In this document: positions 20,695 through 48,261 of the stretch, in pieces
How positions within the stretch are numbered: the first letter of the stretch is position 1
How the letters are laid out: every line of letters starts with the position of its first letter
From: an uncultured Candidatus Saccharibacteria bacterium
GTDB lineage: Bacteria > Patescibacteriota > Minisyncoccia > Phycocordibacterales > UBA9988
Assembly: GCA_964401135.1 (NCBI GenBank)
Contig: CAYNXC010000002.1
Location: 112,975 to 176,974 of the forward strand
Direction: 5' to 3'
DNA length: 64,000 nucleotides
Made by a program: the position numbers and the translations under genes
The notes under the pieces: model-generated
The model's input: the letters and a program-made list of their open reading frames with translations, nothing else
Databases searched by the model: none
What the model was told of the DNA's origin: nothing

Positions 20695-20700
20695 AGTTGG

Positions 20701-21252: not shown

Positions 21253-21375
21253 TTACGGAGGTCTCGACTGCCGCTTTCAGTCCATAAATGGAGCCTGAAA
21301 AGGCAGAGACCTCGTACATATTTCATTACTACAGGCAGCGTACTAATTATAGCAAGGTGTACAATTGTGGCAAGT

Positions 21376-21600: not shown

Positions 21601-21602
21601 TT

Positions 21603-23324: not shown

Positions 23325-23326
23325 AA

Positions 23327-23596: not shown

Positions 23597-23603
23597 ATCT
23601 CAA

Positions 23604-23783: not shown

Positions 23784-23785
23784 AG

Positions 23786-24055: not shown

Positions 24056-24163
24056 GTCCGTACCTAGATATCTCCATAGATACTTTCCAAAAGAGAAAAC
24101 ACTCCCAGAAATGAGAGTGTCTTTTTTACTTGTCCACAGTAGCTATTGAGTACCTATGGGTAC

Positions 24164-24871
24164 CTATCCGATTTTGATGATTTCTATCCGAGGGTTGAGT
24201 CTGTAGCCGCTCCCTTGTTTCGCTTCAATGAGTTTGAGTGAACCTTTTAAGTCCAGCTCGTCAGCAGTTGCTTTATTGAGCTTTCCAAACTCATTGCGCA
24301 ATCGTGCCGATGTCATATCAAGTTCTGATGCCATATCCTGCGTACTTAACTCGTAGTCAGCATTAGGATTGTCAATAAGATATTTGAAAACTTTGAAAGG
24401 CGCTCCATTTCGTGCCATAGAGTATGATTTTTCTTTCGTGTCCTTGAAAACAATCCCTTCGTCTTTGTAGTACAGAACCAATTTGTCTATTGGTGTTTGA
24501 GTAGAGACAACAGACTTTTGCTTATTCACAAATGCCGCAATCTTCTTCGGGTCAATCGTTATACGCCACGCGGTTTCTATGGAGTCGAGCATTTCCTCGT
24601 CGTTTTTTCGCCAGTTTTCTATATCTGCCTCTGATATCTCGTTGAAGTGCCATTCATTTTCTCCGCTCGTTCGCTCCATTTGTCCTTTGCATTGTTCGTG
24701 ATTGCTTACGCCGTGTTTGGATAGAAGCGAAAATCCCAGCATTAAATCGTGCAAGGTAATACCTTTCGCATCAAACATTTTTGTCGGTACATACACGACA
24801 CTTTTTTCTTTATTAAAATCTACACGCGAGTAGTCGTGAATGACTTTTGCGATATCCATCTCCATTGCCAT
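24164..24871 (-). CDS. hypothetical protein of element, possible C-terminal DNA-binding domain
   Basis: 235-aa ORF divergent from xis-like gene; no firm motif. Confidence 0.4.
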   Translation of the reverse strand: MAMEMDIAKVIHDYSRVDFNKEKSVVYVPTKMFDAKGITLHDLMLGFSLLSKHGVSNHEQCKGQMERTSGENEWHFNEISEADIENWRKNDEEMLDSIETAWRITIDPKKIAAFVNKQKSVVSTQTPIDKLVLYYKDEGIVFKDTKEKSYSMARNGAPFKVFKYLIDNPNADYELSTQDMASELDMTSARLRNEFGKLNKATADELDLKGSLKLIEAKQGSGYRLNPRIEIIKIG

Positions 24872-24938
24872 TTATCCAGTTTACCACAACTGGACACATT
24901 TGCTCATAGGCTTACATCGTAGTATTATGAGTATACCT

Positions 24939-25151
24939 ATGAAGAAAAGTAAGGAGGAGCAATTTTTGACTCTTCAAGAGGTCGCCAAGCGCTTGCGGGT
25001 TAGCGAGCGTTCGGTGTTTCGATATATTCACGACGGAAAGATTGAAGCCACGAAAGTGGGCTACTGGCGCATCACTGAAAGTGCTTTGGCAAAGTTTTTG
25101 AAAGACCGCTCCAATCTGAACAAGTCGCCGCGTAAGAAGTCGAAAAAGTAA
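24939..25151 (+). CDS. xis: excisionase-family HTH DNA-binding protein (MerR/Xis-like HTH_17); start at MKKSKEEQ
   Basis: LTLQEVAKRLRVSERSVFRYIHDGKIEATKVGYWRI matches excisionase/HTH_17 pattern. Confidence 0.7.
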   Translation: MKKSKEEQFLTLQEVAKRLRVSERSVFRYIHDGKIEATKVGYWRITESALAKFLKDRSNLNKSPRKKSKK

Positions 25152-25176
25152 CCTCGTTTTTTGAAATGGAAATGTA

Positions 25177-27687
25177 ATGCAAAAAGAAGCCAAAGCCAGA
25201 ATCAAAATAAACAACCTACTACAGCAATCTGGCTGGAGGTTTTTCGATGATGAGAACGGCAAGGCAAACATCACCCTTGAGCTTAATACCAAACTTACGA
25301 ACAAAGATATCAATGATATCGGCGAAAACTTTGAGAACACAAAGAACGGTTTTGTAGACTTCCTTCTGCTCGACGATAAGGGCTTTCCGTACGTTGTTCT
25401 TGAGGCAAAGTCCGAGGACAAAGACCCTCTTGATGGTAAAGAGCAGGCACGTCGCTATGCGCAGTCTCTGAACGTCCGCTTTGTTATCCTTTCAAACGGG
25501 AACCTCCACTACTTCTGGGACTTGGAGCGCGGCAATCCATCCATCATTATCCAATTCCCAACACCTGAATCTCTACAACATTTTGAGCAGTTCAAACCGA
25601 ATCCTAAACAACTTGCCGAGGAAAAAGTTTCTAACGATTACATAGTTCTTACCCAGAAAGCGGAGTACCAAAATGACCCGCGCTGGATAGACGAAGCACA
25701 GCGAGATGATTTCGTGTACGCGGAGTCGCTCAAGTTCTTGCGCCCGTATCAGCTTCGTGCGGTTCAGTCTCTCCAAGAAGCTGCTACTGCTGGTAATGAC
25801 CGTTATCTTTTTGAGATGGCAACGGGTACGGGTAAAACACTCGTGTCTGCTGCTGTTATCAAACTCTTTCTCAAGTCTGGTAATGCAAAGCGCATCCTCT
25901 TTCTTGTAGACCGTTTGGAACTTGAAGACCAAGCCGCAAAGAGTTTTAAGAAACTACTCTCGAAGGATTACACAACTGTTATCTACAAGGAGAGCAAGGA
26001 CGATTGGCGTAAGGCAGAGATTGTTGTCTCAACAGTGCAAAGTCTATCTTTCAATAACAAATACCAGCGACTCTTTTCTCCAACTGACTTCGACCTCATT
26101 ATCTCTGACGAAGCCCATCGTTCAATAGGCGGAAACAGCCGTGCGGTTTTCGAGTATTTTGTTGGCTACAAGCTCGGACTTACAGCAACACCAAAAAATT
26201 ATCTCAAGGGCATTGACCCAGATAAACTCAACTCAAAAGACCCTCGTGCGTGGGAACGCCGACAACTTCTTGATACCTACAAGACTTTTGGTTGCGAGAG
26301 CGGAGAACCTACATTCCGATACACACTCCTCGATGGCGTGAAAGATGGATATCTCATCAACCCTGTTGTTGCTGATGCTCGTACAGAGATTACGACAGAG
26401 CTTCTTTCAGAGAAGGGATATTCTCTGATGGTTGAAAGTGAAGATGGTAAAGAGGAGGAACAGGTCTTCTTTCATACTGATTTCGAGCGTAAGTTTTTCT
26501 CCGACAAGACCAATCAGATTTTGTGCAAAACATTCTTGGAAAACGCACTCAAAGACCCGATTACGGGTGAAATAGGAAAAGGTATCGTTTTCTGTGTGAG
26601 CCAGAAGCACGCCTCAAAAATTACCCAGACGCTCAATCAGTTTGCAGACCAGCTTTATCCAGGAAAGTACAACTCCGATTTTGCGGTGCAGATTACTTCC
26701 AACATTCCGAACGCACAGGAATATACCATCAACTTTGCGAACAATAACCTTAATGGCTATACGAAGTTCCTGGATGGCTATCGTTCCAGCAAGACACGCG
26801 TCTGCGTAACGGTAGGAATGATGACAACAGGATATGACTGCGAAGATATCCTGAATGTGGCACTGATGCGCCCTATATTCTCTCCAACAGATTTCATTCA
26901 GATAAAGGGACGCGGTACACGTAAGTTTTCGTTTGTGCACCAGGAAAAAGAAGGTGGCGAGATACAAGAAGCAAAGATACCAAAAGACAAGTTCAAGCTG
27001 TTCGATTTCTTTGCGAACTGTGAATACTTCGAGGACAAATATAACTACGATGAGGTTTTGGTTCTTCCAACCATCGGCACGGGCACAGGTGGTGGTGATG
27101 GTGTGAATATAGACGAAGTATCAATCACACAGCACGACCCACTCAAGACGTTTACTGAAAAAGCGGTTGGTATGGATGGAATGAAGATTGACCGCAAGCT
27201 ATTTGAGAAGTTTGAGGCGGCAATCAAAGAAGACCCATTCATCAAACAGAAATACGAAGAAGGCGACCTTGCTTCCATCGAAAATTACGTAAAAGAAAAT
27301 ATCTTCGATAAGCCAGAGGAATGGTTTAGTCTCGATAAGCTCCGCAAGTCTGTCAAAGCTGACCGTCGCATCAGCATCCGTGAGTTCATTGCCAAAGCGT
27401 TTGGAGGCATCACCAGGTTCAAGTCAAAGGATGAATTGCTTGAAGATGAGTTTGAGCAATTTGTCGCTATCAACAAACCAGACAGCCAATACGTAATGCC
27501 AATCAAGAATTATTTGAAGGCATACATCACTGATAACGAAATTAGAGACATTATCGAGAAAGGAGAATATACGCGCTTGGCAACCAACCCCAAGCTCACG
27601 TTTGCTGACCTCCAAGAGCTAAATGGTTGGATTGAACGCGTGCCAGAATACGTGAAGGACTACGTATCTCTTAACGCTTATATGTAA
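25177..27687 (+). CDS. hsdR: Type I restriction enzyme R subunit
   Basis: HsdR_N nuclease motif VDFLLLDDKG...VVLEAKSE, SF2 helicase motifs ATGTGKT (I), DEAHR (II), C-terminal helical region. Confidence 0.9.
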   Translation: MQKEAKARIKINNLLQQSGWRFFDDENGKANITLELNTKLTNKDINDIGENFENTKNGFVDFLLLDDKGFPYVVLEAKSEDKDPLDGKEQARRYAQSLNVRFVILSNGNLHYFWDLERGNPSIIIQFPTPESLQHFEQFKPNPKQLAEEKVSNDYIVLTQKAEYQNDPRWIDEAQRDDFVYAESLKFLRPYQLRAVQSLQEAATAGNDRYLFEMATGTGKTLVSAAVIKLFLKSGNAKRILFLVDRLELEDQAAKSFKKLLSKDYTTVIYKESKDDWRKAEIVVSTVQSLSFNNKYQRLFSPTDFDLIISDEAHRSIGGNSRAVFEYFVGYKLGLTATPKNYLKGIDPDKLNSKDPRAWERRQLLDTYKTFGCESGEPTFRYTLLDGVKDGYLINPVVADARTEITTELLSEKGYSLMVESEDGKEEEQVFFHTDFERKFFSDKTNQILCKTFLENALKDPITGEIGKGIVFCVSQKHASKITQTLNQFADQLYPGKYNSDFAVQITSNIPNAQEYTINFANNNLNGYTKFLDGYRSSKTRVCVTVGMMTTGYDCEDILNVALMRPIFSPTDFIQIKGRGTRKFSFVHQEKEGGEIQEAKIPKDKFKLFDFFANCEYFEDKYNYDEVLVLPTIGTGTGGGDGVNIDEVSITQHDPLKTFTEKAVGMDGMKIDRKLFEKFEAAIKEDPFIKQKYEEGDLASIENYVKENIFDKPEEWFSLDKLRKSVKADRRISIREFIAKAFGGITRFKSKDELLEDEFEQFVAINKPDSQYVMPIKNYLKAYITDNEIRDIIEKGEYTRLATNPKLTFADLQELNGWIERVPEYVKDYVSLNAYM

Positions 27688-27689
27688 TT

Positions 27690-30113
27690 ATGCTTACCGC
27701 AGAAACAAAAAGAAAAATTGATAATGCGCGAGATATCCTCGTAGGAAAAGTGCCAGACCCGAAGGCGCAGGTGGAGCAGATTACTACGGCGCTCATCTAT
27801 AAGTTTATGGATGATATGGATATGCACTCTGCCTCTCTCCCGAAAGGTAAAGCGCAATTCTTCACTAACGGTTTTGGAAAATATGCCTGGAGCAAACTGA
27901 TGGATGCGAAACTTGGTGGGCAAGAGCGTCTGAATCTTTACGAGGAAGCGATTAGAAAGATGTCTACTAATCCACACTTACCTCAACTTTTTCGTGATGT
28001 ATTTAAGGATGCTTATCTACCTTATCGAGACCCACAAACACTTAATCTTTTCTTGAAGGAGATAAACGATTTTGAATACGACCATAGCGAGAATCTTGGT
28101 GATGCGTTTGAATACCTACTTTCTGTACTTGGCTCTCAAGGTGAGGCTGGACAATTTCGCACACCACGCCACATCATTGATTTCATTGTTGAAGTGCTTG
28201 ACCCTAAAAAAGATGAAACCATCCTCGACCCAGCGTGTGGTACGGCAGGTTTTCTAATTTCTGCATATAAACACATACTCAAGGCAAATGAAAAAAAGCG
28301 ACTTACACCAGACGAAAAAAAGCGGCTAATGAGCAATTTGGCTGGATACGATATTTCACCAGATATGGTGAAGCTCTCTCTTGTGAATATGTATCTCCAC
28401 GGTTTTCCAAGTCCGAATATTCACGAATACGATACACTCACAAGCGATGAACGTTGGGACGAGCACTTTGACGTAATGATGGCGAATCCTCCTTTTATGA
28501 CTCCGAGGGGCGGTATCCGTCCTCATAAGCGATTTATGGTGCAAGCGAATCGTGCAGAAGTCTTGTTTGTTGATTACATAATGGAACATCTCAACAGCAA
28601 GGGGCGCGCAGGTATTATTGTTCCTGAAGGTGTTATTTTTCAATCTGCTGGTGCATATAAAGAGTTGAGGCGAGCGCTTGTGGCAGATGGATTGTATGCG
28701 GTTGTATCTTTACCTGCTGGTGTCTTTAATCCTTATGCGGGAGTGAAAACCAGTATCCTATTTTTTGATAACCAACTCTCAAAGTTATCCAAGGAAGTGC
28801 TTTTTATCAAAGTACTCAATGATGGTTTTAGTTTAGGTGCACAACGTAGACCAATAGATAAAAATGATTTACCACACGCTCTCAAGGTTTTGCAGGCGCA
28901 CAAAGAGGCAATACTCAATAAGAAAAGAAGCCCTCTCAAAAAAGAAAACCTGTTTGCTTGGACAATAAGTAAAAAGAAAATTGCTGAACGTGTTGATACT
29001 AACCTTGAGGGAGAGAGATACAAACCAGTAAAGTTTGCTGAAAGATTGAAGCATCCATTAGAGGAGTTGGGTAACATTATCGAACTCGATTTTGGAACGA
29101 GGATTACTCAAAAGAATAATACTGGCAGTCTATATCCTGTTTATGGTGGAGGCGGTGAAAGTTTTAGAACCGATGACTTCAACAGGCAGGATGAGGTAGT
29201 GATTTCGAGGTTTGCTATGTCAGAAAATTGTGCGCGAGTTGTGAAGGAAAAGTTTTTCCTAATGGACTCTGGTTTTACTTACTCAATCAAGGAAGAGTTT
29301 GCTGCTAGGGCGGATAAACAGTTCATAGATTACCTAATACTCAATATGCAGGAGCGTATCTATGCCTGTGGCAGAGGGCACGCCCAAAAGAATCTTGATA
29401 CCAAGGCTTTCAAAAAGTTACTCATTCCACTTCCAACACTTGAGGAACAGAAACAAATTATTTCTGAATTAGATAGCTACCAAAAAGTGGTTGATGGTGC
29501 GAATCAAGTAATTGAACACCACAAACCATCAATTCAAATTAGCGAGTCTTGGGAACGAGCAGAACTAGGTGATATTGCCAAGATGGAGTATGGATACACA
29601 GAAACAGCAAAGATTAAGGGAGATGCTCGTTTTGTCCGTATAACAGATATCAGTAACGAAGGACACCTAAAGTCGGAAGGTGCGAAGTACGTAAACCTTA
29701 CCAAAGAGGCAAAGGCATACTTACTCAAGCGCGGGGATGTTCTTGTTGCCCGTACTGGTGCAACGTATGGCAAAACTATGATTTTCAATGAAGAATATCC
29801 AGCAGTATTTGCTTCGTTTCTTATTCGCCTCAATTTCGATACCAAAAAGATTCTCCCAGAATACTATTGGGCATTTGCTCAAACCACTGATTACTGGAAT
29901 CAAGCAAGGGCGTTAGTAACAGGCGGTGTGCAGCCGCAGTTCAATGGTAATGCAATGAAACATCTTTCTATTCCACTACCAAGTTTAGAAGTCCAAGAGC
30001 AAATTATTGCTCAAGTGAAAAATGAACAAGCACACGCTTCATCTGCGATGAAAATGGTTGAGATTTATGGAGATAAGATTAAAAATAAAATTGCCGAAAT
30101 ATGGGGCGAATAA
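27690..30113 (+). CDS. hsdMS: fused Type I R-M methyltransferase-specificity protein (HsdM ~470 aa + HsdS with two target-recognition domains)
   Basis: HsdM N-terminal domain, SAM motif DPACGTAGFL, catalytic NPPF; C-terminal two TRD blocks each ending in HsdS conserved spacer LPLPTLEEQKQI / LPLPSLEVQEQI; uninterrupted 807-aa frame. Confidence 0.85.
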   Translation: MLTAETKRKIDNARDILVGKVPDPKAQVEQITTALIYKFMDDMDMHSASLPKGKAQFFTNGFGKYAWSKLMDAKLGGQERLNLYEEAIRKMSTNPHLPQLFRDVFKDAYLPYRDPQTLNLFLKEINDFEYDHSENLGDAFEYLLSVLGSQGEAGQFRTPRHIIDFIVEVLDPKKDETILDPACGTAGFLISAYKHILKANEKKRLTPDEKKRLMSNLAGYDISPDMVKLSLVNMYLHGFPSPNIHEYDTLTSDERWDEHFDVMMANPPFMTPRGGIRPHKRFMVQANRAEVLFVDYIMEHLNSKGRAGIIVPEGVIFQSAGAYKELRRALVADGLYAVVSLPAGVFNPYAGVKTSILFFDNQLSKLSKEVLFIKVLNDGFSLGAQRRPIDKNDLPHALKVLQAHKEAILNKKRSPLKKENLFAWTISKKKIAERVDTNLEGERYKPVKFAERLKHPLEELGNIIELDFGTRITQKNNTGSLYPVYGGGGESFRTDDFNRQDEVVISRFAMSENCARVVKEKFFLMDSGFTYSIKEEFAARADKQFIDYLILNMQERIYACGRGHAQKNLDTKAFKKLLIPLPTLEEQKQIISELDSYQKVVDGANQVIEHHKPSIQISESWERAELGDIAKMEYGYTETAKIKGDARFVRITDISNEGHLKSEGAKYVNLTKEAKAYLLKRGDVLVARTGATYGKTMIFNEEYPAVFASFLIRLNFDTKKILPEYYWAFAQTTDYWNQARALVTGGVQPQFNGNAMKHLSIPLPSLEVQEQIIAQVKNEQAHASSAMKMVEIYGDKIKNKIAEIWGE

Positions 30114-37311: not shown

Positions 37312-37425
37312 GTTCTACTTCTAAAACCCCCTCTTTTTCAATAAGAGAGGGGGTTTTGCGTGCTTGCGCTTCTTCTTTTTTGGTGTAGAGTGGATGTATC
37401 ATCGGAAGCTTATCAGCCAGCATAT

Positions 37426-38574
37426 ATGGCTATGAAAAAAATATTACTCATTGCGTGTGTTGCTCTCCTTTACCCATTAAGCTCTCACGCGGCTCTCATT
37501 AAGGGGGGAGATGAGTACTCACTCCGTCAGCTCGATGTGGTATCGGGTGATCTCTATGTGGGAGCTGGCACGGCCTCAATTGCAGGCGTTGTGCGTGGCG
37601 ATCTCTCGGTTGGAGGAGGTACAGTACTCTACACTGGGTATACGGCAGGAGATATATTAGTCGGCGGTGGCACTGTAACACTCACCGGCCGTGCGAACGA
37701 TGATGTCCGTGTGGCGGGAGGTACGGTGATCGTGAGTGGTCCCATTGCCGGTGATTTGATCGTTGCAGGTGGGCTGGTCCGTGTAGAGTCAACGGCGAGT
37801 ATTGCTGGAGATGTGTTGATTGGCGGTGGACGCGTTGTGTTAGATGGCCCTGTACAGGGTAATCTCCGCGTCTATGGAGGACAAGTTGATATAGAGAGTA
37901 TGGTGAATGGTTCTGTAGAGGCTGCTGCGGACAGGCTCGTTATAAGACCCCGTGCCTATATCCGTGGCGATCTCATCTACCGTGCCCCGCAACGAGCGGT
38001 CATAGCAAATTCTGCGGTGATTGATGGAAAAATAATTTATAAAGAAACCAAGGACTTTTTAGCGATAGGGAAGACCTCTGTCCGAGAGGCAGCCGCTGCG
38101 TTCTTAGGACTCTGGCTTATCCTTAAATTCGTTATGACGCTCTTGATTGCTCTCATTATTGTGCTTCTCTTTGGTAATTTGGCGCACGAGCTGGTCTACC
38201 GTGTTGTGCATGAACCATGGTGGACAGTACTTATGGGTTTTGTTCTTCTCGTCTCTCTTCCTGTGGCAACACTGCTAATCTGTATGACCATCGTTGGTAT
38301 ACCTATAGGAATTCTTGCACTGCTTATGTACGCCTTCTTCATTCTCCTATCTATTCCTCTAGCAAGTCTTATTTGCGGAATATGGGCGATAAAACTGATT
38401 AAGAAAGAGTCCACTATCACAGCCACATGGCAGGCGGCGGTACTTGGCTCGCTTATATATACTGCACTTGGATTTATCCCAATCCTTGGATGGGTAGTTA
38501 AGCTCCTTTTTGTGCTTGCCGCACTCGGAGCCTTTTCGCACTATTGGTATCGCTTCATCTGGATGAATCGTTGA
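37426..38574 (+). CDS. secreted bactofilin-like beta-helical repeat protein with C-terminal multi-TM domain
   Basis: signal peptide MKKILLIACVALLYPLSSHA; repeated GDL-V-GG-V-G motifs; five hydrophobic helices at C-terminus. Confidence 0.6.
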   Translation: MAMKKILLIACVALLYPLSSHAALIKGGDEYSLRQLDVVSGDLYVGAGTASIAGVVRGDLSVGGGTVLYTGYTAGDILVGGGTVTLTGRANDDVRVAGGTVIVSGPIAGDLIVAGGLVRVESTASIAGDVLIGGGRVVLDGPVQGNLRVYGGQVDIESMVNGSVEAAADRLVIRPRAYIRGDLIYRAPQRAVIANSAVIDGKIIYKETKDFLAIGKTSVREAAAAFLGLWLILKFVMTLLIALIIVLLFGNLAHELVYRVVHEPWWTVLMGFVLLVSLPVATLLICMTIVGIPIGILALLMYAFFILLSIPLASLICGIWAIKLIKKESTITATWQAAVLGSLIYTALGFIPILGWVVKLLFVLAALGAFSHYWYRFIWMNR

Positions 38575-38659: not shown

Positions 38660-39025
38660 ATGCTTTTCAATGAGGGTGTCTCTTTGCTAGGATTGGGTAT
38701 GGTCAGTTATGATGATTTCAAAGAACTTGATCTGCGCGTTGTGCGTGTGCACGAGGCTTCTCGTGTGGAGGGGTCAGAAAAACTCCTTAAACTCCTCGTC
38801 GAGTCGGGCAGTGGCGAGATCAGACAGATCATTGCCGGCATTGGGAAGGCTTATGAGCCAGAGGCACTTATGGGCAGGAGTATTGTAATTGTGGCCAACC
38901 TTGATCCTCGCACTCTGATGGGTTTAGAGAGTCAGGGCATGGTGCTTGCCGCACATGGGGAAGATGGAGCGCCGGTGCTCTTGTCCCCCGAGCGTGAAGT
39001 CCCGTCTGGCTCAGAGATTAGTTAA
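38660..39025 (+). CDS. tRNA-binding (EMAP/CsaA/Trbp111-like) domain protein
   Basis: DLRVVRVHEA...LLKLLVESGSGEIRQIIAGI OB-fold tRNA-binding signature. Confidence 0.7.
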   Translation: MLFNEGVSLLGLGMVSYDDFKELDLRVVRVHEASRVEGSEKLLKLLVESGSGEIRQIIAGIGKAYEPEALMGRSIVIVANLDPRTLMGLESQGMVLAAHGEDGAPVLLSPEREVPSGSEIS

Positions 39026-39026
39026 T

Positions 39027-39097
39027 GGGCCTATAGTAAAGTGGTATTACGCGGCATTCGCATTGCCGAGTCCCGGGTCCGACTCCCGGTAGGTCCA
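39027..39097 (+). tRNA. tRNA-Ala(CGC): tRNA-Ala (anticodon CGC), G3-U70 identity pair, CCA not encoded
   Basis: acceptor gggccta/taggtcc with G3:U70, anticodon stem cggca/tgccg loop ttCGCat, T-arm ccgggtccgactcccgg. Confidence 0.8.
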
Positions 39098-39122
39098 CAA
39101 GTATGGTATACTCTTATGATAT

Positions 39123-39425
39123 ATGAAAGGCTTCATCGAATTTATCCGTGAACAAGGAGTTGTGGGGTTAGCTGTTGGCTTTATTCTAGGAGGCGCAGTT
39201 TCTAAGGTAGTCTCGGCACTGGTGACCGATGTTATCAACCCACTCCTTGGGCTCGTTCTTGGGGCGGCAGGAGGGTTAAAGGATGTTGCTATCTCCGTCG
39301 GCTCCGCACGCATTCTCTATGGGGATCTCGTGAGTGTGGTGATTGATTTTCTTGTTATTGCGCTCGTGGTCTACTATGGCGTCAGACTACTCCGATTGGA
39401 CAAGTTGGATAAGAAAAAGGTATGA
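39123..39425 (+). CDS. mscL: large-conductance mechanosensitive channel
   Basis: FIREQGVVGLAVGFILGGAVSKVVSALVTDVINPLLG. Confidence 0.85.
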   Translation: MKGFIEFIREQGVVGLAVGFILGGAVSKVVSALVTDVINPLLGLVLGAAGGLKDVAISVGSARILYGDLVSVVIDFLVIALVVYYGVRLLRLDKLDKKKV

Positions 39426-39448
39426 TCGCAATCTCTACTCGAGCAAGC

Positions 39449-39478
39449 CTCGCCATGCCTCTTGTATGGCGGGTTTTT
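39449..39478 (+). terminator. intrinsic terminator after mscL
   Basis: hairpin cgccat-gcctcttgt-atggcg followed by ggttttta. Confidence 0.5.
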
Positions 39479-39503
39479 ATAAAGTGCTATACTATACATA
39501 TCT

Positions 39504-40202
39504 ATGGGATCGGCTCAACTTACAGAGCAAATACGAGTAGCGCTTGCTACTGGTAAACGCAAGGAGGAGATTTACCAAGAGCTACTCGCTCAAGGGACTA
39601 CTCTCACGGCAATTGAGGCAGGCTTTGACTCCCTTATACAAGAGACTGCAAAGAGCGACTCTCACAAGTGGGCGGTACGAGTGATCGTGAGCATAGGTGC
39701 GCTCTTGGTTGCTGCTGGCATCTTCTCCTTCGTAGCGGCCAACTGGCAGGAGATTGGGCGCATGGCCAAGGTTGGCATCGTGCTTACAGCGATGGCTGTC
39801 TCATACGGGCTCGGGTTCTATTTAAAAGAGTATCGCAGTTATGCCCGCTCTGGTGAGGCACTCATACTCCTTGGAGCTATTAGCTATGGCGCGGGGATCT
39901 TTCTTGTTGCACAACTCTTTCATGTGCAGGTTGAGTGGCCGGATGGTTTCCTACTCTGGATGCTCGGTACTCTGGCGATGGCCATTGCCATTGACTCCTA
40001 CCTTCTCTACTACTTAAGTCTACCGCTCGGATTCGCTGGATTGGTGGGGCTTCCTTCTATTATGTTTGAACTCTTTTGGTCGCGTGGCATCTCCGCTACT
40101 TTTATCTCGATATCCCTCCTTATCATCTCTGCCCTTTGTACCTTTGCTACTGGATGGATTATAAGGCGGAGAATGCCCGATGAATTAAAGCAACTCTACT
40201 AG
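39504..40202 (+). CDS. DUF2157-family integral membrane protein
   Basis: multi-TM architecture, first gene of conserved DUF2157/DUF4401/GDYXXLXY triad. Confidence 0.6.
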   Translation: MGSAQLTEQIRVALATGKRKEEIYQELLAQGTTLTAIEAGFDSLIQETAKSDSHKWAVRVIVSIGALLVAAGIFSFVAANWQEIGRMAKVGIVLTAMAVSYGLGFYLKEYRSYARSGEALILLGAISYGAGIFLVAQLFHVQVEWPDGFLLWMLGTLAMAIAIDSYLLYYLSLPLGFAGLVGLPSIMFELFWSRGISATFISISLLIISALCTFATGWIIRRRMPDELKQLY

Positions 40203-40206
40203 TACT

Positions 40207-41334
40207 ATGTCCGCACTCGGCTTCATCCCATTCTTCATCGTCATCGGACTTGCAATCCCTCTACTCTTGCTTTTCTTTGTCATCCGTTTTGTGTTTGGGA
40301 TCTTTCGTCATCGAGGTGGCACTTCCGTGAAGAGCGAGTGGCATCTCATGGTTGCCAACTCTCGCGAGGACGCGGTGAGCCAAGCATTTTTCTTCCTCTC
40401 CTTCCTATCTCTCTGTATGATACTCCTCCATATCAATCAAGAGCTAGATTACCTGCTCTCATCGCAGACGATATTCCTCATCTCCTCCATTGTAGGGCTC
40501 GCCGGTGCTTACTGGCTCAAAAATGTATACCTTTTGGTGGGCTCCTTGGCAGGTGTGACGCTCTGGTGGGGAGCGCAAGCAGCGCTCTGGGCTAGTGAAA
40601 GAGTGGGAGACATTGCTCTCTCTTCCATTACCATCGTCAGCGGTATCGGTCTCATTACTTTGCTTTTTTATGCGCTTGGTAGATTGCATGAGTGGTTCCC
40701 CAAAGCAAAACGCTTTGCGCTCACCTACCTAGTTCTCGGCGTAGTTCCTGTCACTGCCCTTCTCTTCTTTTTATCCACGGGCATTGGATTAGAGGCTTTA
40801 GAAGATATGACAAGAGGAACATCGATGCTCAATACTTGGCAGGTACTTTTCTCCTTTGTAGTGATTGGGATCGCGCTTGTGGTGACACTCACGGTTATCA
40901 CCATTAAGCGTCTCATATACCCAGGAGAACTTGCGGCACTCATTGTGCTCGTGGCACTCTTAGGGAGCATCGCCTTCCTTCCCGCGCAGACTTTGGTGGC
41001 GAAGGGGGACTCATACTCATATTCGCGTACACTCACGAGTACGGGCATTATTTGGGCGAGCATCTTTAACATCGCACTTCTTGCCGAGTTGGTGGGGATC
41101 GTGTTTATGGGTTACGCACGCCGCGCAACAGGGCTCATCAATCTCGGTGCCTTGGCACTCTTCATCTTTATTTTCATAAAATACTTTGACTGGTTCTTTA
41201 GTTATATAAATAAGAGCGTATTTTTTATCGGCGCGGGCGTTCTCCTCTTTGCACTCGGCTGGCTGATGGAGCGGGGGAGGCGGCGTATGATCGCAACACT
41301 TAAGAGCACTGAAAATCAACCCTCAACACTATGA
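40207..41334 (+). CDS. DUF4401-family polytopic membrane protein
   Basis: ~10 TM helices, second gene of triad, 4-nt gap to previous gene. Confidence 0.6.
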   Translation: MSALGFIPFFIVIGLAIPLLLLFFVIRFVFGIFRHRGGTSVKSEWHLMVANSREDAVSQAFFFLSFLSLCMILLHINQELDYLLSSQTIFLISSIVGLAGAYWLKNVYLLVGSLAGVTLWWGAQAALWASERVGDIALSSITIVSGIGLITLLFYALGRLHEWFPKAKRFALTYLVLGVVPVTALLFFLSTGIGLEALEDMTRGTSMLNTWQVLFSFVVIGIALVVTLTVITIKRLIYPGELAALIVLVALLGSIAFLPAQTLVAKGDSYSYSRTLTSTGIIWASIFNIALLAELVGIVFMGYARRATGLINLGALALFIFIFIKYFDWFFSYINKSVFFIGAGVLLFALGWLMERGRRRMIATLKSTENQPSTL

Positions 41335-41921
41335 TACCTACGAGTACAAAATTCTTTCTCGCCTTTGCGTTGCAGGTTATTGTGATTCTTGTACTTGTAC
41401 TTGTGAAGCTCTCTGTCTTAGAAAGTGGCACTGAAGTTCTTTTGCGTATCGCCCCTGTAGACCCACGAGATCCTCTGCGTGGAGACTATGTAACCTTCCA
41501 GTATGAAATTTCACAGGTAGACTCATTTCTAGTAAGGGGTGATAATCTCCGTACTCTACACAATGGTGATGACCTCTATGTGGTGCTACAAGAAGGTAAT
41601 CCATATTGGCACATTAGTTACGCAAGTACCGAGAGGCCCAATACAAACGAGAGTCAGATTTTTTTGAAGGGAAAGATAGTGCGGGGGGCACGGAGTCCAC
41701 TAGAAGAATCTCAGACAGGAACCAGCACTCAAATAGCACAGTCAGTAAAAATTGTGGATGACTTAACACTCTCGTATGGGATGGAGCAATACTTTATTCC
41801 CGAGGGAAAAGGGAATAGTTTTAATTTTTGGGACAAAGAAGTGGGGATGCGCATTAAGGTAGATGCAAACGGCAAAGCTGTCCCTGATCAATTGTTTGTT
41901 GACGGAAAAAGGTGGCCGTAG
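41331..41921 (+). CDS. GDYXXLXY-domain protein (N-terminal TM anchor)
   Basis: motif GDYVTFQY after the N-terminal TM; 4-nt overlap with upstream gene. Confidence 0.65.
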   Translation: MIPTSTKFFLAFALQVIVILVLVLVKLSVLESGTEVLLRIAPVDPRDPLRGDYVTFQYEISQVDSFLVRGDNLRTLHNGDDLYVVLQEGNPYWHISYASTERPNTNESQIFLKGKIVRGARSPLEESQTGTSTQIAQSVKIVDDLTLSYGMEQYFIPEGKGNSFNFWDKEVGMRIKVDANGKAVPDQLFVDGKRWP

Positions 41922-41924
41922 ACT

Positions 41925-42143
41925 TTAATTGATTCCAAAAAACTTTTTGACTCGTACTGTGTGTGCTGGCCAGCGCTGTTCAATATAGCTCTGCAGTACT
42001 ACACGCCAGCCGAGTAGCTCCAGTCCGACAATGCCGAGCCATGCGCCGGGGGTGAGCGGAGTGAGAATAGAGAGGATACCGAGGATAACAAGGAGTACTC
42101 CTAGGATCTTTTTCAGTATTAACTTCGTGAGTGCCATAGACAT
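41925..42143 (-). CDS. small 2-TM membrane protein (DUF454/YbaN-like)
   Basis: 72-aa ORF, two hydrophobic helices. Confidence 0.35.
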   Translation of the reverse strand: MSMALTKLILKKILGVLLVILGILSILTPLTPGAWLGIVGLELLGWRVVLQSYIEQRWPAHTVRVKKFFGIN

Positions 42144-42162: not shown

Positions 42163-42684
42163 ATGTCGTCAAAGCAGACCTTTGCACTCTATGTGAAGAC
42201 ATTTATCTTTGGTGTGGAAGATAGTCTCGTCTCCACGGTGGGGCTTCTCTCTGGTGTTGCGCTTGCGGGCGCTGATCGTGACTCCATTCTCCTTTCCGGA
42301 TTTATTCTCATTTTTGTTGAGGCTTTTTCTATGGGGGTAGGGAGTCTTCTTGCTGAACACCAAGCAGAAAATTATCTTGCACATAGGACTGTCCCCATCA
42401 GACATGCGGCTACTTCAGGGGTGCTTATGTTTACCTCATACCTTGTTGCGGGATTGATCCCTATTCTGCCTTACCTATATTACACAAACAGCGTGGCCGT
42501 CTCGCTCTCTATCGCACTTACCCTCTCGGCACTCTTTGTTCTTGGTCTTGTAAGTGCCTTCTTCTTTAAAATCAGCTTGTTGCGTAATGGCTTTGAGATG
42601 CTTATTATGGGAGGGCTCGCAATCCTCGTCGGCATCCTCGTGGGGCATTTCGTAGGAGGCGGGCTTCTCACGGCGGTCGGTTAG
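42163..42684 (+). CDS. VIT1/CCC1-family (iron/manganese transporter-like) membrane protein
   Basis: FIFGVEDSLVSTVGLLSGVA and downstream TM pattern. Confidence 0.7.
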   Translation: MSSKQTFALYVKTFIFGVEDSLVSTVGLLSGVALAGADRDSILLSGFILIFVEAFSMGVGSLLAEHQAENYLAHRTVPIRHAATSGVLMFTSYLVAGLIPILPYLYYTNSVAVSLSIALTLSALFVLGLVSAFFFKISLLRNGFEMLIMGGLAILVGILVGHFVGGGLLTAVG

Positions 42685-42810: not shown

Positions 42811-42882
42811 GCGCCTTTAGCTCAGTGGTAGAGCGTTCGCTTCACACGCGAAAGGCCGTAGGTTCAATCCCTACAAGGCGCA
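42811..42882 (+). tRNA. tRNA-Val(CAC): tRNA-Val (anticodon CAC), CCA not encoded
   Basis: acceptor gcgcctt/aaggcgc, D-arm agctcagtggtagagc, anticodon stem ttcgc/gcgaa loop ttCACac, T-arm gtaggttcaatccctac. Confidence 0.85.
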
Positions 42883-42992
42883 CAAGCTAAGACGCGAGAG
42901 GTCGTAGACTTGTCCCGATGTAGTCCGCCCTGTCTATCGATAGGCAGGCGTGGTGGACGGGGGAGGATTTATCTCCTACAGAGTGAGCTCGT

Positions 42993-43823
42993 TTATCTTT
43001 CTCCGCGTATTTTCACAGAGAAATTAGGATCATCTGCATACTTTAGCGCGCGGGTGTTGATAAGGTATCGTTCACGCGCTTGATTAAACGAGAGGTCCGT
43101 TTCAATAAGGCCGAGTGTGTAAGCAAGTCGATCAGAATTTTTTGGTAAAAAGACATGTAGACTAAAGAGAGGGACGCGCCCCGGTGCGATGCTGTTGATA
43201 TGGCGGACTATGTTTGTAGTGCAGGTGTTAAAAATAGCGTTGTAAAATTCCGGCCGTTCTTGCAGTGCATTTGTTCGCTTAAGCATACTCACAAAAAGTT
43301 CTCGTACTTTTTCTGGAGATGCCTTACCGGGGTACAAGTACACCATATCCTTGCGATAATTTGAACGAAGTTTGATCACATCGCGTTCATCAGCAACTAC
43401 ATACATGATCTCGTAACGACTCAGTAGTCCCTTGATTGCGCTAAAGCTTTCTCCTTTTTCTTTTCTAATCTCTACAGAGATTGCAATAAATTGACCCCCC
43501 TTAAATTCAAAGCTCAAAAAAGTATGAGCTGACCCGGGGAAGCCCGAGAATGGCTCTACCACATACCAGACCCTCTGTATGTCTCCCAAATTAAACTGCC
43601 CGTCGTAGTAGTGAGGGATGTAGCTAGTAGTTGAGGCATAGGTAAAGTTCCGTATGTTATGTACTGTTACTGTATCTCCCTTAAACTCTGCGTAGGGGAG
43701 TAGCGCCTGATCTGGGTTCCACTCACGCTCGTTTGAGGGAGTGGTGCTAATGCTCAAAAGGAGGTAGGCAATGATTATTGTCGCACATATTTTTAGCATT
43801 AAAATTGCAAATGTACGAAACAT
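42993..43823 (-). CDS. hypothetical membrane-anchored/secreted protein
   Basis: N-terminal TM MLKICATIIIAYLLLSI; 276 aa; no motif. Confidence 0.5.
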   Translation of the reverse strand: MFRTFAILMLKICATIIIAYLLLSISTTPSNEREWNPDQALLPYAEFKGDTVTVHNIRNFTYASTTSYIPHYYDGQFNLGDIQRVWYVVEPFSGFPGSAHTFLSFEFKGGQFIAISVEIRKEKGESFSAIKGLLSRYEIMYVVADERDVIKLRSNYRKDMVYLYPGKASPEKVRELFVSMLKRTNALQERPEFYNAIFNTCTTNIVRHINSIAPGRVPLFSLHVFLPKNSDRLAYTLGLIETDLSFNQARERYLINTRALKYADDPNFSVKIRGER

Positions 43824-43947: not shown

Positions 43948-46900
43948 ATGGAGATAGAATCGGTAGGTATTTGCTGCGGTTCTTCAACCGTAGCTGGAGT
44001 GAGCTTAGATGGAAGATTTGTTGAATCTAAGCTACGGCACAATGGAGATGTTGCTGATACAGCCCAAGAAATTCTCAATATTCTTTCACCCTCCCCAAAT
44101 GCAAAAATTGTTATCACGGGACGGGCGCGTCAAGCTTTTTCCAACTATCCCTATGTGACGGAGCCAGAAGCTCTTCAACGAGCTCTCAAAGAGTTCGTAT
44201 CAGAGGAGTATCCTGAAGCTGTCGTCAGCTTTGGTGGACAGACGATTCTTGCGTATGAAGTTGATACGCAAGGGTATATTGTTCGTTCACATTCGTTCAA
44301 CAAGTGTGGTAGTGGGACTGGAGAATTCATGATCCAGCAGATTGGCAGGCTCGGCTTTACTTCGCTTACCCATGCGATGGATGCCGCAAACGATCCTTTG
44401 TCGTACGCCAATCCGTATGTACCAGCGAGTCGTTGTAGTGTATTCTGCAAATCTGACTGTACTCATGCAGCAAACGAAGGTAAGGCAAGCACAAGCCAGA
44501 TCACAGCCGGTCTATGCCTTATGGTTGCTCAAAAAATCGCAGAACTTGCAGGTAAGATAGAAGCAAGATGTCTCTGGCTTATTGGAGGAGGCTCGGCACT
44601 TGGACCAGTACGGTCATATCTTGAGGATCTCGGATTTCGAGTCACTATACCTCCTCATGCAGAACATTTTGAAGCGTGGGGAGCCGCACTCCTTGGTGCT
44701 GACGATGACGAAAGAGCGTGCCAGAAACAATTTATGGCAAGTGAAAAAAGCGATTCTTTTCCTCGATTGCCGCCACTAGAAAATTTTTCACACCTCGTTA
44801 CCTACAAAGAGGCACTGCGTGGGGAAGCAGAAGCTAACGATCAGTGTATCCTCTCAATTGATGTTGGATCAACCACGACTAAGGCTGCATTACTGCGACT
44901 TGATGACTTAAGTCTCCTTGCTTCTCACTATGGTTATACACATGGGATGCCTCACAAGGCAATGCTTGAGTGCTTTGCCGAACTTGACAAATTGATTACT
45001 GTTCCGATTCAGATTGTCGGTATCAATGTAACTGGTTCGGGGCGTTATCTTGCCGAAGCATTTTTGACCGATTATGCTCTACAAGATAAAAATGCCGCGC
45101 AGATCTCTGTTGTGAATGAGATCACTTGTCATGCAACTGCTGCCGAACGTTTGAATCCAGGAGTATCATGTGTATTAGAGATTGGCGGACAGGACGCGAA
45201 ATACACATACCTAGAATCTGGAGTGCCACTTGATTTCTGCATGAATGAAGCATGTTCTGCCGGGACGGGAAGCTTTCTTGCTGAGGTTGCAAAAGAATTG
45301 TTTCAGATCCAGGATCCTAATAAGATCGCGCCAACTGCTCTTGAGGGTAAGAGGCCGATCAAGTTTGGAGAACAATGCTCCGCATTCATTGAGAGCGACA
45401 TCAATTCAGCGCTTCGCGAAGGTGCTTTACAGGAAGATGTTATGGCTGGATTGTGTTATTCTGTCTGCTACAACTATGTCAATCGTGTTGTTGGCAATCG
45501 TCCGATCAGAGGAACCATTTCTCTCCAAGGTGGCACTGCCTATAATCCTGCATTCTGTCTTGCAATGGCGGGAGTCCTGTCTCAGAGCGCGATATTAGGG
45601 AAGGACGATCGTATTATTGTATCGCGCGAAGCGGGGCTCATGGGAGTGATAGGCGGAGCAGCTTTCCTTGTTGAAAAAATTCGACAAGGAGGCTATAAGC
45701 TTATACATACGACACTTGCCACCCTTCTCACCAAAGAACTCAAAGAAGCTTCGAGTTTCGAATGCAGAGGATGCACATACAAATGTTCCATAAAGCGATT
45801 CGAGATTACGAGTGAGGGAAAATCTACAAAAGTTCCTTTTGGTGGATTCTGTCGCAAGTACGATACAATTCGCCGCGGAAGTAAGCCATTTTCGTCGGAT
45901 GATTATGACTTTACTGCACTACGAGACCAGATGTTGTTTGGAGTCTATTCTAACCTCGGCCAATCGCTTTCTAGTACAGCTCCGTCCATTGGAGTTCTTG
46001 GAAATTTCTTTGAGCTCAAGTATCTGCCTCTCTTCTCAACGATCTTCGCTAGCCTTGGTATGAGGACTGTGTTGGCGGATGCTGTGGATCAAAATGGTCT
46101 ACAACGCCAAAGCGGTTCCTATTGTTGGCCAGTTGGACGATCCCACGGACTTATGGAGAATCTTATACAAAAAAATCCAGATTTCTTCTGGATGCCACAT
46201 GTCCATACTGTGGAGTCCTCTGATATTACGCGAGATCAATGCTGCCCACTTGCGCAAGGCACTCCGTTCTTGCTCAAGACGGCTTTCCCAGAAATTCCTC
46301 CACATAAGATTATGGATCCGTATCTGTGTATCACCGATGATATCTCCGATCTCCTCACAGCATTTACTCCCCTCGCAAAACAAATAGGAGTGGGGCGAAG
46401 AAAGCTGAAGAAGGCGATAGAGGCGGGTATTGAAGCTCAGCGATGTTTTACACTAGCGTGCAAACAGAAGGGCCGCGAACTTCTTGAAGAACTTGCGCAA
46501 TGTCCTGGAGAAATAGCTTTTGTTATGGTCGGAAGACCATATAATGCTCTCTCAAACCACTTAGGAAGTAATAAGGGTCTTTCTCGTAAAATTGCTTCGA
46601 TGGGTATCCGCGTCATTCCACTCGATTTTCTTCCTCTGGATGAGGTTGAAGATGAGCCGGATATGTACTGGTCAGCGGGGCAAGACATATTACGCGCGGC
46701 GCGATTCATTGCTCAACGGAAAGAATTGTATGGAGTATTCCTTACCAACTTCAGTTGTGGACCAGATTCTTTCCTTGTCACTAAGTATCGTCGCTATCTC
46801 GATGGTAAGCCATCTCTTATTCTTGAGTTCGATGCACATACGGCGAATGCCGGATTTGACACGAGAATTGAAGCATTTCATGAAATCGTGCAAAGCTTCA

Positions 46901-48261
46901 TCCGCGTAAGTGCTTCGGGACACAGGCCAGAGAAGATCCTTGCTTTTGATGGCTCTCCTTTGGAGACAGATCCAGAGGATATCAGAGGCCAGAAGATGAG
47001 AGTCGTTATTCCTGACATGGGAAGCTTCTATTCACAGGCGCTTTCCGCTACCTTAGAAAGTTTCGGAGTTAGGACAACACTGTTGCCTCAACCGGATCAT
47101 GCCACTCTCGCTTTGGGGCGTCGACATGCAAGTTGTAAAGAATGTCTGCCCTACAATCTGACGATTGGGAGTTTCCTTCATTATCTGGAGCATGAGCGTG
47201 AGTCTGGAGAATCCACCGCACTCTTTATGCCAGCTGGATCAGGGCCATGTCGTTTTGGGCAGTATAGTATTCACACACGGCTTCTACTCCATGAGTTGGG
47301 ATATTCCGATGTCACAGTACTCTCGCCTTCGGATAGTACCGCGTATGCAGGACTTGGCCCAAGCTTTCGGGAGAGAGCATGGATCGCTCTCGTCGCTGGC
47401 TCTCTCGTTGAGAACATTAGTTGTGCTCTTCAAACTCTTGCAGTGGATGTTGAGGAAGCCAAGACGATACTCCATACTTCTTGGGGTAGAATTGTAGAGA
47501 AAATACGCGGGGGAGTACAGATGAAGAACATATCAAGTTTCCTCTCTCTCCTCCAAAAAGAGGCTCAGATCCTTAAGACAATCCCACTCCATAACTCTCT
47601 GGACAAGGTGCCGAAGGTACTTATCACAGGTGAGATCTATGTACGCCTCTCTGACTTTACCACCTTGCCGATTGTCCGTTATCTTGGACAGCATGGCATC
47701 GTAGCAGTCAAGGAACCTGCTACAAACTGGTTGAAGTATGTTGATTATATTTATCAGCATGCGTATGTCTTACAAAAACAAAGTATGAAGGCGCGCTTCC
47801 TCCATTTTGTTAAGAGGAAGGTACAAGTACTCTACGAAAGGCTTATCACAGACGCTCTCTCTATGTCCGGACTATGTGCAGATACAAGCGGGAATATAGA
47901 AGAGATTATAAAATGGGCTCAGCCTTATCTCTCCGATCGTCTATGGGGAGAGGCTATCCTTACTATAGGCAGTGCACGATTTGAATCTCTCGGACGATAC
48001 GCGGGAGTTGTTGTGGTCGGCCCGTTTGGCTGTATGCCAACACGGCTTGCAAGCGGCATCCTAACCTACACAATGTCGGTAGAGGATAAAGTCGCATCTG
48101 ATCCTCATTGTATCCCTGAAGCTTTGAGAAAATCATGTTCTCACTGTCCCTTCATCACCCTTGAGACTGACGGAGTTGCACTCTCCCCAATCACCTGTTC
48201 GTCACTTGACGCATTTTGTGTCGTAGCGAAAAGGGTACACGGAGTAATGCAGAAATCGTGA
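43948..48261 (+). CDS. 1437-aa CoA-substrate-specific enzyme activase-family fusion: two ASKHA (BadF/BadG/BcrA/BcrD) ATPase domains + DUF2229 / 2-hydroxyacyl-CoA dehydratase (HgdB/FldB)-like C-terminal region
   Basis: two acetate/sugar-kinase-like modules (ILSIDVGSTTTKAALL; LEIGGQDAKYTYLE; CSAGTGSFLAEVAKEL), then Cys-rich dehydratase-like region. Confidence 0.75.
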   Translation: MEIESVGICCGSSTVAGVSLDGRFVESKLRHNGDVADTAQEILNILSPSPNAKIVITGRARQAFSNYPYVTEPEALQRALKEFVSEEYPEAVVSFGGQTILAYEVDTQGYIVRSHSFNKCGSGTGEFMIQQIGRLGFTSLTHAMDAANDPLSYANPYVPASRCSVFCKSDCTHAANEGKASTSQITAGLCLMVAQKIAELAGKIEARCLWLIGGGSALGPVRSYLEDLGFRVTIPPHAEHFEAWGAALLGADDDERACQKQFMASEKSDSFPRLPPLENFSHLVTYKEALRGEAEANDQCILSIDVGSTTTKAALLRLDDLSLLASHYGYTHGMPHKAMLECFAELDKLITVPIQIVGINVTGSGRYLAEAFLTDYALQDKNAAQISVVNEITCHATAAERLNPGVSCVLEIGGQDAKYTYLESGVPLDFCMNEACSAGTGSFLAEVAKELFQIQDPNKIAPTALEGKRPIKFGEQCSAFIESDINSALREGALQEDVMAGLCYSVCYNYVNRVVGNRPIRGTISLQGGTAYNPAFCLAMAGVLSQSAILGKDDRIIVSREAGLMGVIGGAAFLVEKIRQGGYKLIHTTLATLLTKELKEASSFECRGCTYKCSIKRFEITSEGKSTKVPFGGFCRKYDTIRRGSKPFSSDDYDFTALRDQMLFGVYSNLGQSLSSTAPSIGVLGNFFELKYLPLFSTIFASLGMRTVLADAVDQNGLQRQSGSYCWPVGRSHGLMENLIQKNPDFFWMPHVHTVESSDITRDQCCPLAQGTPFLLKTAFPEIPPHKIMDPYLCITDDISDLLTAFTPLAKQIGVGRRKLKKAIEAGIEAQRCFTLACKQKGRELLEELAQCPGEIAFVMVGRPYNALSNHLGSNKGLSRKIASMGIRVIPLDFLPLDEVEDEPDMYWSAGQDILRAARFIAQRKELYGVFLTNFSCGPDSFLVTKYRRYLDGKPSLILEFDAHTANAGFDTRIEAFHEIVQSFIRVSASGHRPEKILAFDGSPLETDPEDIRGQKMRVVIPDMGSFYSQALSATLESFGVRTTLLPQPDHATLALGRRHASCKECLPYNLTIGSFLHYLEHERESGESTALFMPAGSGPCRFGQYSIHTRLLLHELGYSDVTVLSPSDSTAYAGLGPSFRERAWIALVAGSLVENISCALQTLAVDVEEAKTILHTSWGRIVEKIRGGVQMKNISSFLSLLQKEAQILKTIPLHNSLDKVPKVLITGEIYVRLSDFTTLPIVRYLGQHGIVAVKEPATNWLKYVDYIYQHAYVLQKQSMKARFLHFVKRKVQVLYERLITDALSMSGLCADTSGNIEEIIKWAQPYLSDRLWGEAILTIGSARFESLGRYAGVVVVGPFGCMPTRLASGILTYTMSVEDKVASDPHCIPEALRKSCSHCPFITLETDGVALSPITCSSLDAFCVVAKRVHGVMQKS

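Follow-up and report, generated by a model that had tools for sequence, protein, structure and literature searches.

The Locus and the Question It Raises

What do three adjacent membrane-protein genes do together in an uncultured Candidatus Saccharibacteria bacterium, and do the mscL and VIT1 genes around them give any clue? The genes occupy positions 39504-41921 of a window of 64,000 nt, which is the whole stretch of DNA that was analyzed (forward strand, positions 112,975 to 176,974 of contig CAYNXC010000002.1), and we refer to these three same-strand open reading frames (ORFs) as A, B, and C. An initial annotation had read them as a conserved triad of the families DUF2157, DUF4401, and GDYXXLXY and had proposed, from their context, a role in the envelope or in ion homeostasis. 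Comparison with other genomes points instead to a linked pair as the conserved core, of which the trio would be a split form. Going by how the nearest homologs are labeled, the DNA would be of CPR (Parcubacteria-like) origin, CPR standing for the candidate phyla radiation. The three consecutive genes were confirmed at their exact coordinates, with the following predicted products:

39504..40202, + strand: gene A, 232 aa, short N-in DUF2157 protein consisting of a helical cytoplasmic head of 59 aa, six predicted transmembrane (TM) helices, and a C-in basic tail
40207..41334, + strand: gene B, 375 aa, about 11 TM helices, N-out/C-in, from a family found mainly in the candidate phyla radiation (CPR)
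41331..41921, + strand: gene C, 196 aa, GDYXXLXY protein anchored by a TM helix (residues ~4-32), with its beta-rich domain outside the cytoplasm

A gap of 4 nt separates A from B (TAG-tact-ATG), while the stop codon of B and the start codon of C overlap by 4 nt (ATGA). With homologs counted in the hundreds, the ORFs go well past what chance would produce.

A Linked Pair and Its Split Form Across Genomes

We scanned one genome per species with the GDYXXLXY alignment, which returned at least 448 relatives, and kept the best 80 loci, on all ORFs of which our own hidden Markov models (HMMs), made from the A, B, and C alignments, were run. In every one of these 80 loci, a DUF2157-family gene was located directly upstream of the GDYXXLXY gene and on the same strand. 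The loci span the CPR, Alphaproteobacteria, Verrucomicrobiota, Planctomycetota, Chloroflexota, and a metagenome-assembled genome (MAG) of the Methanoperedenaceae. The three-gene form, with an A protein of about 230 aa, a B protein of about 365 aa, and C, was present in 27 loci, mostly labeled Parcubacteria, Patescibacteria, or other CPR. The remaining loci had a two-gene form, in which one DUF2157 protein of 370-510 aa is followed by C; its carriers included Bradyrhizobium, Rhizobium, and other Alphaproteobacteria, Verrucomicrobiota, Planctomycetota, Chloroflexia, Dehalococcoidia, and the Methanoperedenaceae MAG. The same pair was found on two replicons of a plasmid collection, namely in Deinococcus sp. 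QL22, where the DUF2157 gene (328 aa, M1R55_RS17405) overlaps the GDYXXLXY gene (RS17400) by 4 nt, and in a Jeotgalibacillus. The families had been described as co-occurring as a triad in diverse bacteria; the linkage of DUF2157 with GDYXXLXY stands in 80/80 loci, but the core is the pair, and the trio is limited to 27/80. Thus, judged from gene order and profile matches, what is conserved is the combination of a long DUF2157 protein with GDYXXLXY, and the trio is its split form.

How the split would have been made can be read from proteins in which A and B are joined. In a single protein of locus L035, the A profile matched residues 36-186 and the B profile residues 202-481 (E = 3.6e-29), and consecutive A then B matches were likewise observed within one protein in L032, L044, and L029. 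Natural A+B fusions of 520-590 aa recur among the representatives of the B family. PF09925, the DUF2157 model, was at the N-terminus of eight of eight long forms (P0092, P0378, P0383, P0389, P0410, P0419, P0428, P0385), and in these eight, as well as in P0426, for which no Pfam check was made, the B match begins only at profile position 36-52 and leaves out the first TM helix of B. The absence of this helix from the fusions fits the predicted topology, since A ends inside and a stand-alone B, which starts outside, has TM1 as an additional helix. The simplest reading is that the CPR genes A and B represent the two halves of the long DUF2157 partner, and the single-gene form, being so widespread among phyla, is suggested to be the ancestral one.

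Coupling between the polytopic partner and C appears to be a general property of the module. With start codons assigned by a heuristic, a 4-nt overlap between the start of C and the preceding stop was counted in 34/81 loci, and the two lie within -11 to +22 nt of each other in 74/81. Such spacing would be typical of translational coupling and of equal subunit amounts.

Sequence Features of the Three Proteins

The topologies of A, B, and C were predicted from hydropathy and the positive-inside rule only. Within the three proteins, conservation is concentrated in the following regions:

39504..39680, + strand: N-terminal head of A (residues 1-59), predicted cytoplasmic, two short helices leading into TM1
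39936..39947, + strand: WPDG loop of A, predicted outward-facing, with W145, P146, and D147 invariant
41047..41280, + strand: TM9-TM11 region of B (residues 281-358), with N288, G302, N312, KYFDW (325-329), FxxxG, G351, and E355-R-G-R358
41454..41504, + strand: motif PVDPRDPLRGDYVTFQY of C (residues 42-58), with P42, D44, P45, G51, and D52 invariant, starting ~10 residues past the modeled TM helix
41775..41807, + strand: motif YGMEQYFIPEG of C (residues 149-159), with E152 and E158 invariant

Protein A, which had been taken for a polytopic DUF2157-like protein, indeed matched PF09925 with 117.6 bits (cut-off 32.4, E = 4.8e-34), residues 51-167 aligning to positions 31-144 of the 146 in the model, and 179 homologs were found. 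In its head, Y24 is invariant and G17, E21, L27, and L28 are nearly so. The equivalent region of the fusion P0092 was modeled as helices at 11-23 and 28-37 with a predicted local distance difference test (pLDDT) score of 92-95, and no Pfam family matched the head at E ≤ 10. Most of the strictly conserved residues lie elsewhere: under the predicted topology, 15 of the 20 invariant residues of A fall either in an outer loop or in the outer half of a TM helix, including N80-W81, K89, Q137, W145-P146-D147, and W152. The conserved outer face would be composed of the WPDG loop, the ANW stretch (79-81, of which N80 and W81 are invariant and A79 is not), K89, and Q137.

The middle gene had been considered DUF4401-like with ~10 TM helices. 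The polytopic character was borne out (about 11 TM helices), while the family assignment failed. Full-length B had no Pfam match at E ≤ 0.01, no PF14351 (DUF4401) match at E ≤ 10, and no NCBIfam match; only its last 104 residues, searched alone, reached 22.7 bits against PF14351 (cut-off 30.4) on positions 237-306 of the 307 in the model. Weak PF14351 matches were seen in 21 of the 58 aligned relatives of B (best E = 7.7e-6), the best relatives scoring 25.5-26 bits, still below 30.4, on model positions ~229-306 only. Membership of B in Pfam DUF4401 was consequently rejected, as B and every relative tested fell below the gathering cut-off, and the Pfam searches proposed earlier recovered PF09925 for A and PF14345 for C, not PF14351 for B. 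Judged from these alignments, the DUF4401 likeness is confined to the last TM hairpin.

Two single-gene DUF2157 proteins gave near-full-length alignments with the DUF4401 model, both sub-threshold: L032 (model positions 6-306, 24.4 bits), where the alignment overlaps the DUF2157 match, and L044 (17.9 bits). Because the model aligns near-full-length over the DUF2157 match in L032, we suggest that DUF4401, the B family, and the long DUF2157 proteins make up one superfamily. Homologs of B numbered 97 in a set of 5.8 billion proteins, mostly from Patescibacteria/CPR sources, and, of 1.84 billion representative clusters searched exhaustively with the B profile, 1,397 had E ≤ 1e-3 and 213 had E ≤ 1e-30; the best 150 matches of this search were all close family members. 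By these comparisons, B is a separate, mainly CPR family for which Pfam has no model and which shares its C-terminal hairpin with DUF4401 and the long DUF2157 proteins. The invariant residues of B cluster in the last three helices (N288, N312, K325-Y326-x-x-W329, G344, G351, E355, R358). An ending of the upstream partner in the form of a TM helix followed by LE[KR]xRR was found in CPR, Verrucomicrobiota, Chloroflexota, Planctomycetota, and the archaeal locus; the Rhizobium partners end with LE[RK]RF, and the Bradyrhizobium ending is divergent. In L023 (4175-5899) and P0069, the B-family protein is internally duplicated (560-574 aa), and the B profile matches the duplicated protein twice, first with profile positions 3-321 and a second time with 138-360. 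As far as these duplications tell, additional TM repeats are therefore tolerated by the polytopic body.

Protein C is a clear member of its family, and its description as a TM-anchored protein with GDYVTFQY held. It matched PF14345 (GDYXXLXY) with 116.2 bits (cut-off 27, E = 1.4e-33), residues 15-188 covering all 153 positions of the model. The GDYVTFQY motif corresponds to residues 51-58, with F rather than L at the sixth position, as in most of the 73 aligned relatives. Hydropathy predicted one TM helix (9-27), followed by a 169-aa ectodomain with a putative extracytoplasmic orientation, and the AlphaFold2 model (pLDDT 86.8, predicted TM-score 0.78) had a helix at 4-32 and then a beta-rich domain. 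In the alignment of these 73 sequences, with identities down to about 30%, P42, D44, P45, G51, D52, E152, E158, and G181 are invariant, and R46, D47, R50, Y53, and Y58 are at least 90% conserved; the conserved residues form two motifs, PVDPRDPLRGDY and YGxExYFIPEG. A Foldseek search with the model returned no match at E ≤ 1e-3 (TM-scores ≤ 0.19), and PDB sequences searched with the alignment profiles of A, B, and C gave nothing under E = 0.1. The fold of the GDYXXLXY ectodomain thus appears to have no experimental structure.

Longer GDYXXLXY proteins, of 336-510 aa, were also observed (L026 3697-5229, L023 5830-7161, P0207, and P0208), with a C-terminal extension of ~160-330 aa. Searched against Pfam, these four had no second domain and offered no informative fusion.

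Proposed Architecture and Role

We propose that A, B, and C form a self-contained operon for a membrane complex that is the split version of the two-gene module. As an overall explanation, this one accounts best for the data, and we give it an even chance of being right as a whole. Its parts differ in strength. The split-module architecture is very probable: A is the counterpart of the DUF2157 core at the N-terminus of the single-gene partner, and B that of its C-terminal TM body. That the proteins form one physical complex is probable, given the A+B fusions and the gene coupling, and they would assemble in a ratio of roughly 1:1. Sequence position and predicted topology would place the invariant residues near the outer membrane surface, perhaps as one polar site. 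Candidates for this site are, in A, the loops ANW and WPDG together with K89 and Q137; in B, the KYFDW stretch; and in C, D44, D52, E152, and E158.

At such a site on the outer face, the complex could handle either a small polar or cationic solute or some component of the membrane or envelope, passively or driven by the proton motive force, with C as a binding or gating subunit. A transport or conduit role is our single most likely guess, and a tentative one. It was guessed because no ATPase, kinase, sigma/anti-sigma, or biosynthetic gene is linked to the module, and because the module occurs in monoderm, diderm, CPR, and archaeal genomes alike. Several points weigh against the proposal. Co-transcription, physical interaction, and activity are all deduced from sequence, and the topologies on which the polar site is placed come from hydropathy and the positive-inside rule. 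The TM body differs greatly in length, with 328 aa in Deinococcus at one end and, in L023, A together with a duplicated B of 574 aa at the other, which counts somewhat against a fixed transporter fold. Lastly, the invariant acidic and basic residues of C could be purely structural or part of an interface, and not ligand-binding.

A more far-reaching version, which we put forward as speculation, is that the module represents a new class of self-sufficient membrane machine with a basic function, in which a polytopic scaffold of variable length is combined with a single-pass subunit, the ectodomain of the latter having no solved relative and carrying invariant carboxylates near the outer surface. 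If true, this machine would serve the uptake or release of cations or small metabolites, or the handling of membrane lipids, and its function would be important enough to persist in CPR genomes of ~1 Mb and to have spread across bacterial phyla and to an archaeon.

The invariant residues could also be read as a catalytic center, with GDYXXLXY as an extracytoplasmic hydrolase or transferase that works at the membrane surface through D44, D52, E152, and E158 on a lipid-linked or envelope substrate presented by the polytopic partner. Several carboxylates in two motifs are invariant across 73 diverse C sequences, the first motif starts ~10 residues past the membrane anchor, and A displays invariant D147, K89, N80, and Q137 on its predicted outer face, all of which suit an enzyme. 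There is no invariant His or Cys in the alignments of A, B, or C, which argues against redox, metalloprotease, or covalent-cofactor chemistry. We regard such an enzyme as unlikely.

An envelope-stress sensor or scaffold of the LiaI/LiaF/PspC type, in which the DUF2157 TM core would sense a perturbation and the head would recruit an effector, is rather improbable. The small cytoplasmic head of A is highly conserved, and a variable number of TM helices is commoner in sensor or scaffold domains than in transporters; yet the conserved residues of A are mostly on the outer face and not in the head, and no output domain for a sensor is recognizable. When A was compared with the LiaI/LiaF TM families of Pfam at E ≤ 10, none matched, the only matches being DUF2157 and two at chance level. 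Moreover, PspA/LiaH, Toastrack, and two-component genes were not among the recurrent neighbors (top 25 families listed).

Gene Neighborhood

The position of the trio between mscL and a small-membrane-protein/VIT pair was correctly annotated (PF01741, the 72-aa ORF, PF01988). The immediate surroundings are as follows:

39027-39098: tRNA-Ala(CGC) gene, upstream of mscL
39123-39425, + strand: MscL gene, 100 aa (PF01741, E = 2.2e-20), directly upstream of the trio
39449..39473, + strand: terminator-like hairpin and, after it, UUUUUAUAAA, located past the mscL stop (39425) and before the start of A, upstream boundary of the putative unit
41925-42143, - strand: small membrane ORF of 72 aa, next gene downstream, convergent to C
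42163-42684: VIT1 gene (PF01988, E = 7.6e-25), downstream of the 72-aa ORF, with its own upstream region

The hairpin has a 10-pair stem with 6 GC pairs, and a T-run comes after it. Folding of 39426-39503 gave a minimum free energy of -19.2 kcal/mol (z = -2.35), and 3 of 200 shuffled sequences folded equally well. An Rfam scan of the window detected tRNAs only and no regulatory RNA near A-B-C. With the hairpin between mscL and A and a convergent gene on the downstream side, the transcription unit is suggested to comprise A-B-C only.

None of the neighbors was conserved with the module. Homologs of MscL or VIT1 were absent within 6 kb of the module in all of the other 80 loci (0/80), and BLAST searches with the window neighbors (MscL, VIT1, the tRNA-binding protein, the bactofilin-like protein, and the 72-aa ORF) found none of them in these loci. 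Among the 27 three-gene loci, no cluster of flanking proteins was present in more than three loci. When Pfam families were counted over 149 genes flanking 42 diverse loci, none occurred more than four times, the commonest being housekeeping families such as trigger factor, NAD synthase, and Ddl (3-4 times). Since no neighbor is conserved across the other loci, the mscL/VIT1 context is, by this comparison, incidental and unfit for annotation.

It is thus very unlikely that the trio contributes to envelope or ion homeostasis together with MscL and VIT1, for instance by assisting osmotic or metal-ion release. This idea drew on MscL immediately before the trio and VIT1 200 nt after it, an arrangement seen in the window as well as in identical metagenome contigs, and the ectodomain of C, net acidic with 24 D+E vs. 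18 K+R, would suit cation binding. However, the two genes accompany the module in none of the other loci, no transporter- or ion-related family recurs among the 149 flanking genes, the hairpin stands between mscL and A, and a convergent gene stands between C and VIT1, which has its own upstream region. The role assigned from context was thus not sustained.

That A and B are a frameshifted single gene, or the trio a pseudogene or a defense or mobile module, has in our judgment next to no chance of being correct and is effectively refuted, for, while A+B is one protein in other lineages and one plasmid-borne copy lies near a transposase, the split is kept in 27 independent loci, where B has a start of its own and one more TM helix at its N-terminus, at least four sequencing runs independently gave the identical locus with unchanged neighbors, the GC content of the region (0.47-0.485) is the same as that of the flanks, the PADLOC-DB defense models had no match to A, B, or C at E ≤ 0.01, and no relatives were found in 2.9 million viral contigs.

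Other observations were made in the window. The MscL homolog has only 100 aa, which align to Pfam MscL positions 2-97 of 123, and its score of 68 bits is under every NCBIfam equivalog cut-off (71-225); it seems, from this alignment, to be without the usual C-terminal cytoplasmic helix. An Lnb_N-domain protein (42993-43823, - strand; PF13387, E = 8.1e-36) is the sole window neighbor recurring beside the module elsewhere, which it does once (L020 6704-7555, 33% identity, E = 3.5e-45), probably by coincidence. Upstream of mscL, a stand-alone tRNA-binding domain protein of 121 aa (38660-39025, + strand), followed by the tRNA-Ala(CGC) gene, passes the NCBIfam model TIGR00399 for the C-terminal domain of methionyl-tRNA synthetase (122.7 bits vs. 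116.65) and resembles CsaA too. At 37360-38574 (+ strand), a 404-aa protein has bactofilin-like beta-helix repeats in its N-terminal half (PF04519, E = 3.5e-7) and a multi-TM C-terminal half, with a weak match to DUF8173; this membrane-embedded architecture is unusual. A tRNA-Val(CAC) is found at 42811-42883, and the gene at 43948-48261 (+ strand) codes for an activase-like protein of 1,437 aa with BcrAD_BadFG ATPase domains and DUF2229, which is very large for a small genome. Farther away, four tRNA genes are gathered inside ~2.7 kb (2230-2313, 2342-2413, 3873-3944, and 4873-4955), and the GC content of 20001-30000 is 0.41-0.44, compared with about 0.50 before and 0.46-0.49 after. The GC skew is negative at 20-26 kb, and this segment may be foreign or differently oriented.

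Previous Reports and Significance

No functional account of DUF2157, DUF4401, or GDYXXLXY, searched by name and accession, was found in the full text of open-access papers and preprints, in agreement with the initial annotation that no function has been established for any member. The families do surface in individual studies: a GDYXXLXY protein of Fusobacterium nucleatum was among 16 proteins co-purifying with both FtsX and EnvC (PMC5915739), a GDYXXLXY gene was induced 1.93-fold in co-culture (PMC9848294), and PF09925 was mentioned in a data-mining paper on membrane proteins (PMC3879021).

On the evidence of its families and gene order, the trio is an ordinary member of a known uncharacterized module, in the split form typical of CPR-type genomes. 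What is new here is the clarification of pair versus triad, the fission/fusion logic with its extra TM helix, the finding of no conserved partner, and the finding of no solved relative of the GDYXXLXY ectodomain. CPR bacteria have kept the module despite their reduced genomes, and it is common as well in rhizobia, Deinococcus, Bacillota, Chloroflexota, and others. Once its function was worked out in a tractable carrier, such as the rhizobia or Deinococcus, the answer would apply to many genomes. The target for such work is sharpened in that the pair is the unit, the CPR middle gene would be a detached C-terminal DUF2157 body that has no Pfam model, and the likely functional site would consist of the invariant polar residues with a predicted outward orientation. 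That such a cluster exists will be no surprise to a specialist; the appeal lies in a compact, widespread, and genetically tractable set.

Comparison With Known Systems

CcmE is a single-pass protein with a small beta-barrel ectodomain that works with the polytopic CcmC/CcmF, which bear Trp-rich outward loops. The likeness to our trio is an architectural analogy only, in which the equivalents of these loops would be WPDG...W in A and KYFDW in B. With the LiaI-LiaF-TM/Psp proteins, the module shares the design of small polytopic membrane modules with a short cytoplasmic part, and a comparative study of Psp systems unified DUF2157 with the 4-TM LiaI-LiaF sensory domain (10.1101/2020.09.24.301986). 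It differs in that there was no Lia Pfam match at E ≤ 10 and that Toastrack, PspA/LiaH, and LiaRS were absent from the recurrent neighbors, and Lia/Psp systems have no obligate GDYXXLXY partner. DUF4401, compared through its Pfam model (PF14351), is like B a ~350-aa polytopic protein encoded before a GDYXXLXY gene and has a similar last TM hairpin; however, no protein of the B family or related to it that was tested reaches 30.4 bits, the best having 26. The closest system is the two-gene module, as in Deinococcus sp. QL22 and in Bradyrhizobium/Rhizobium (L034-L084). In our window, the polytopic partner is distributed over two genes, B begins with an additional TM helix, and A+B amount to 607 aa compared with 330-500 aa for the single partner, but the Pfam families, gene order, strand, 4-nt overlap, and lack of conserved neighbors are the same in both.

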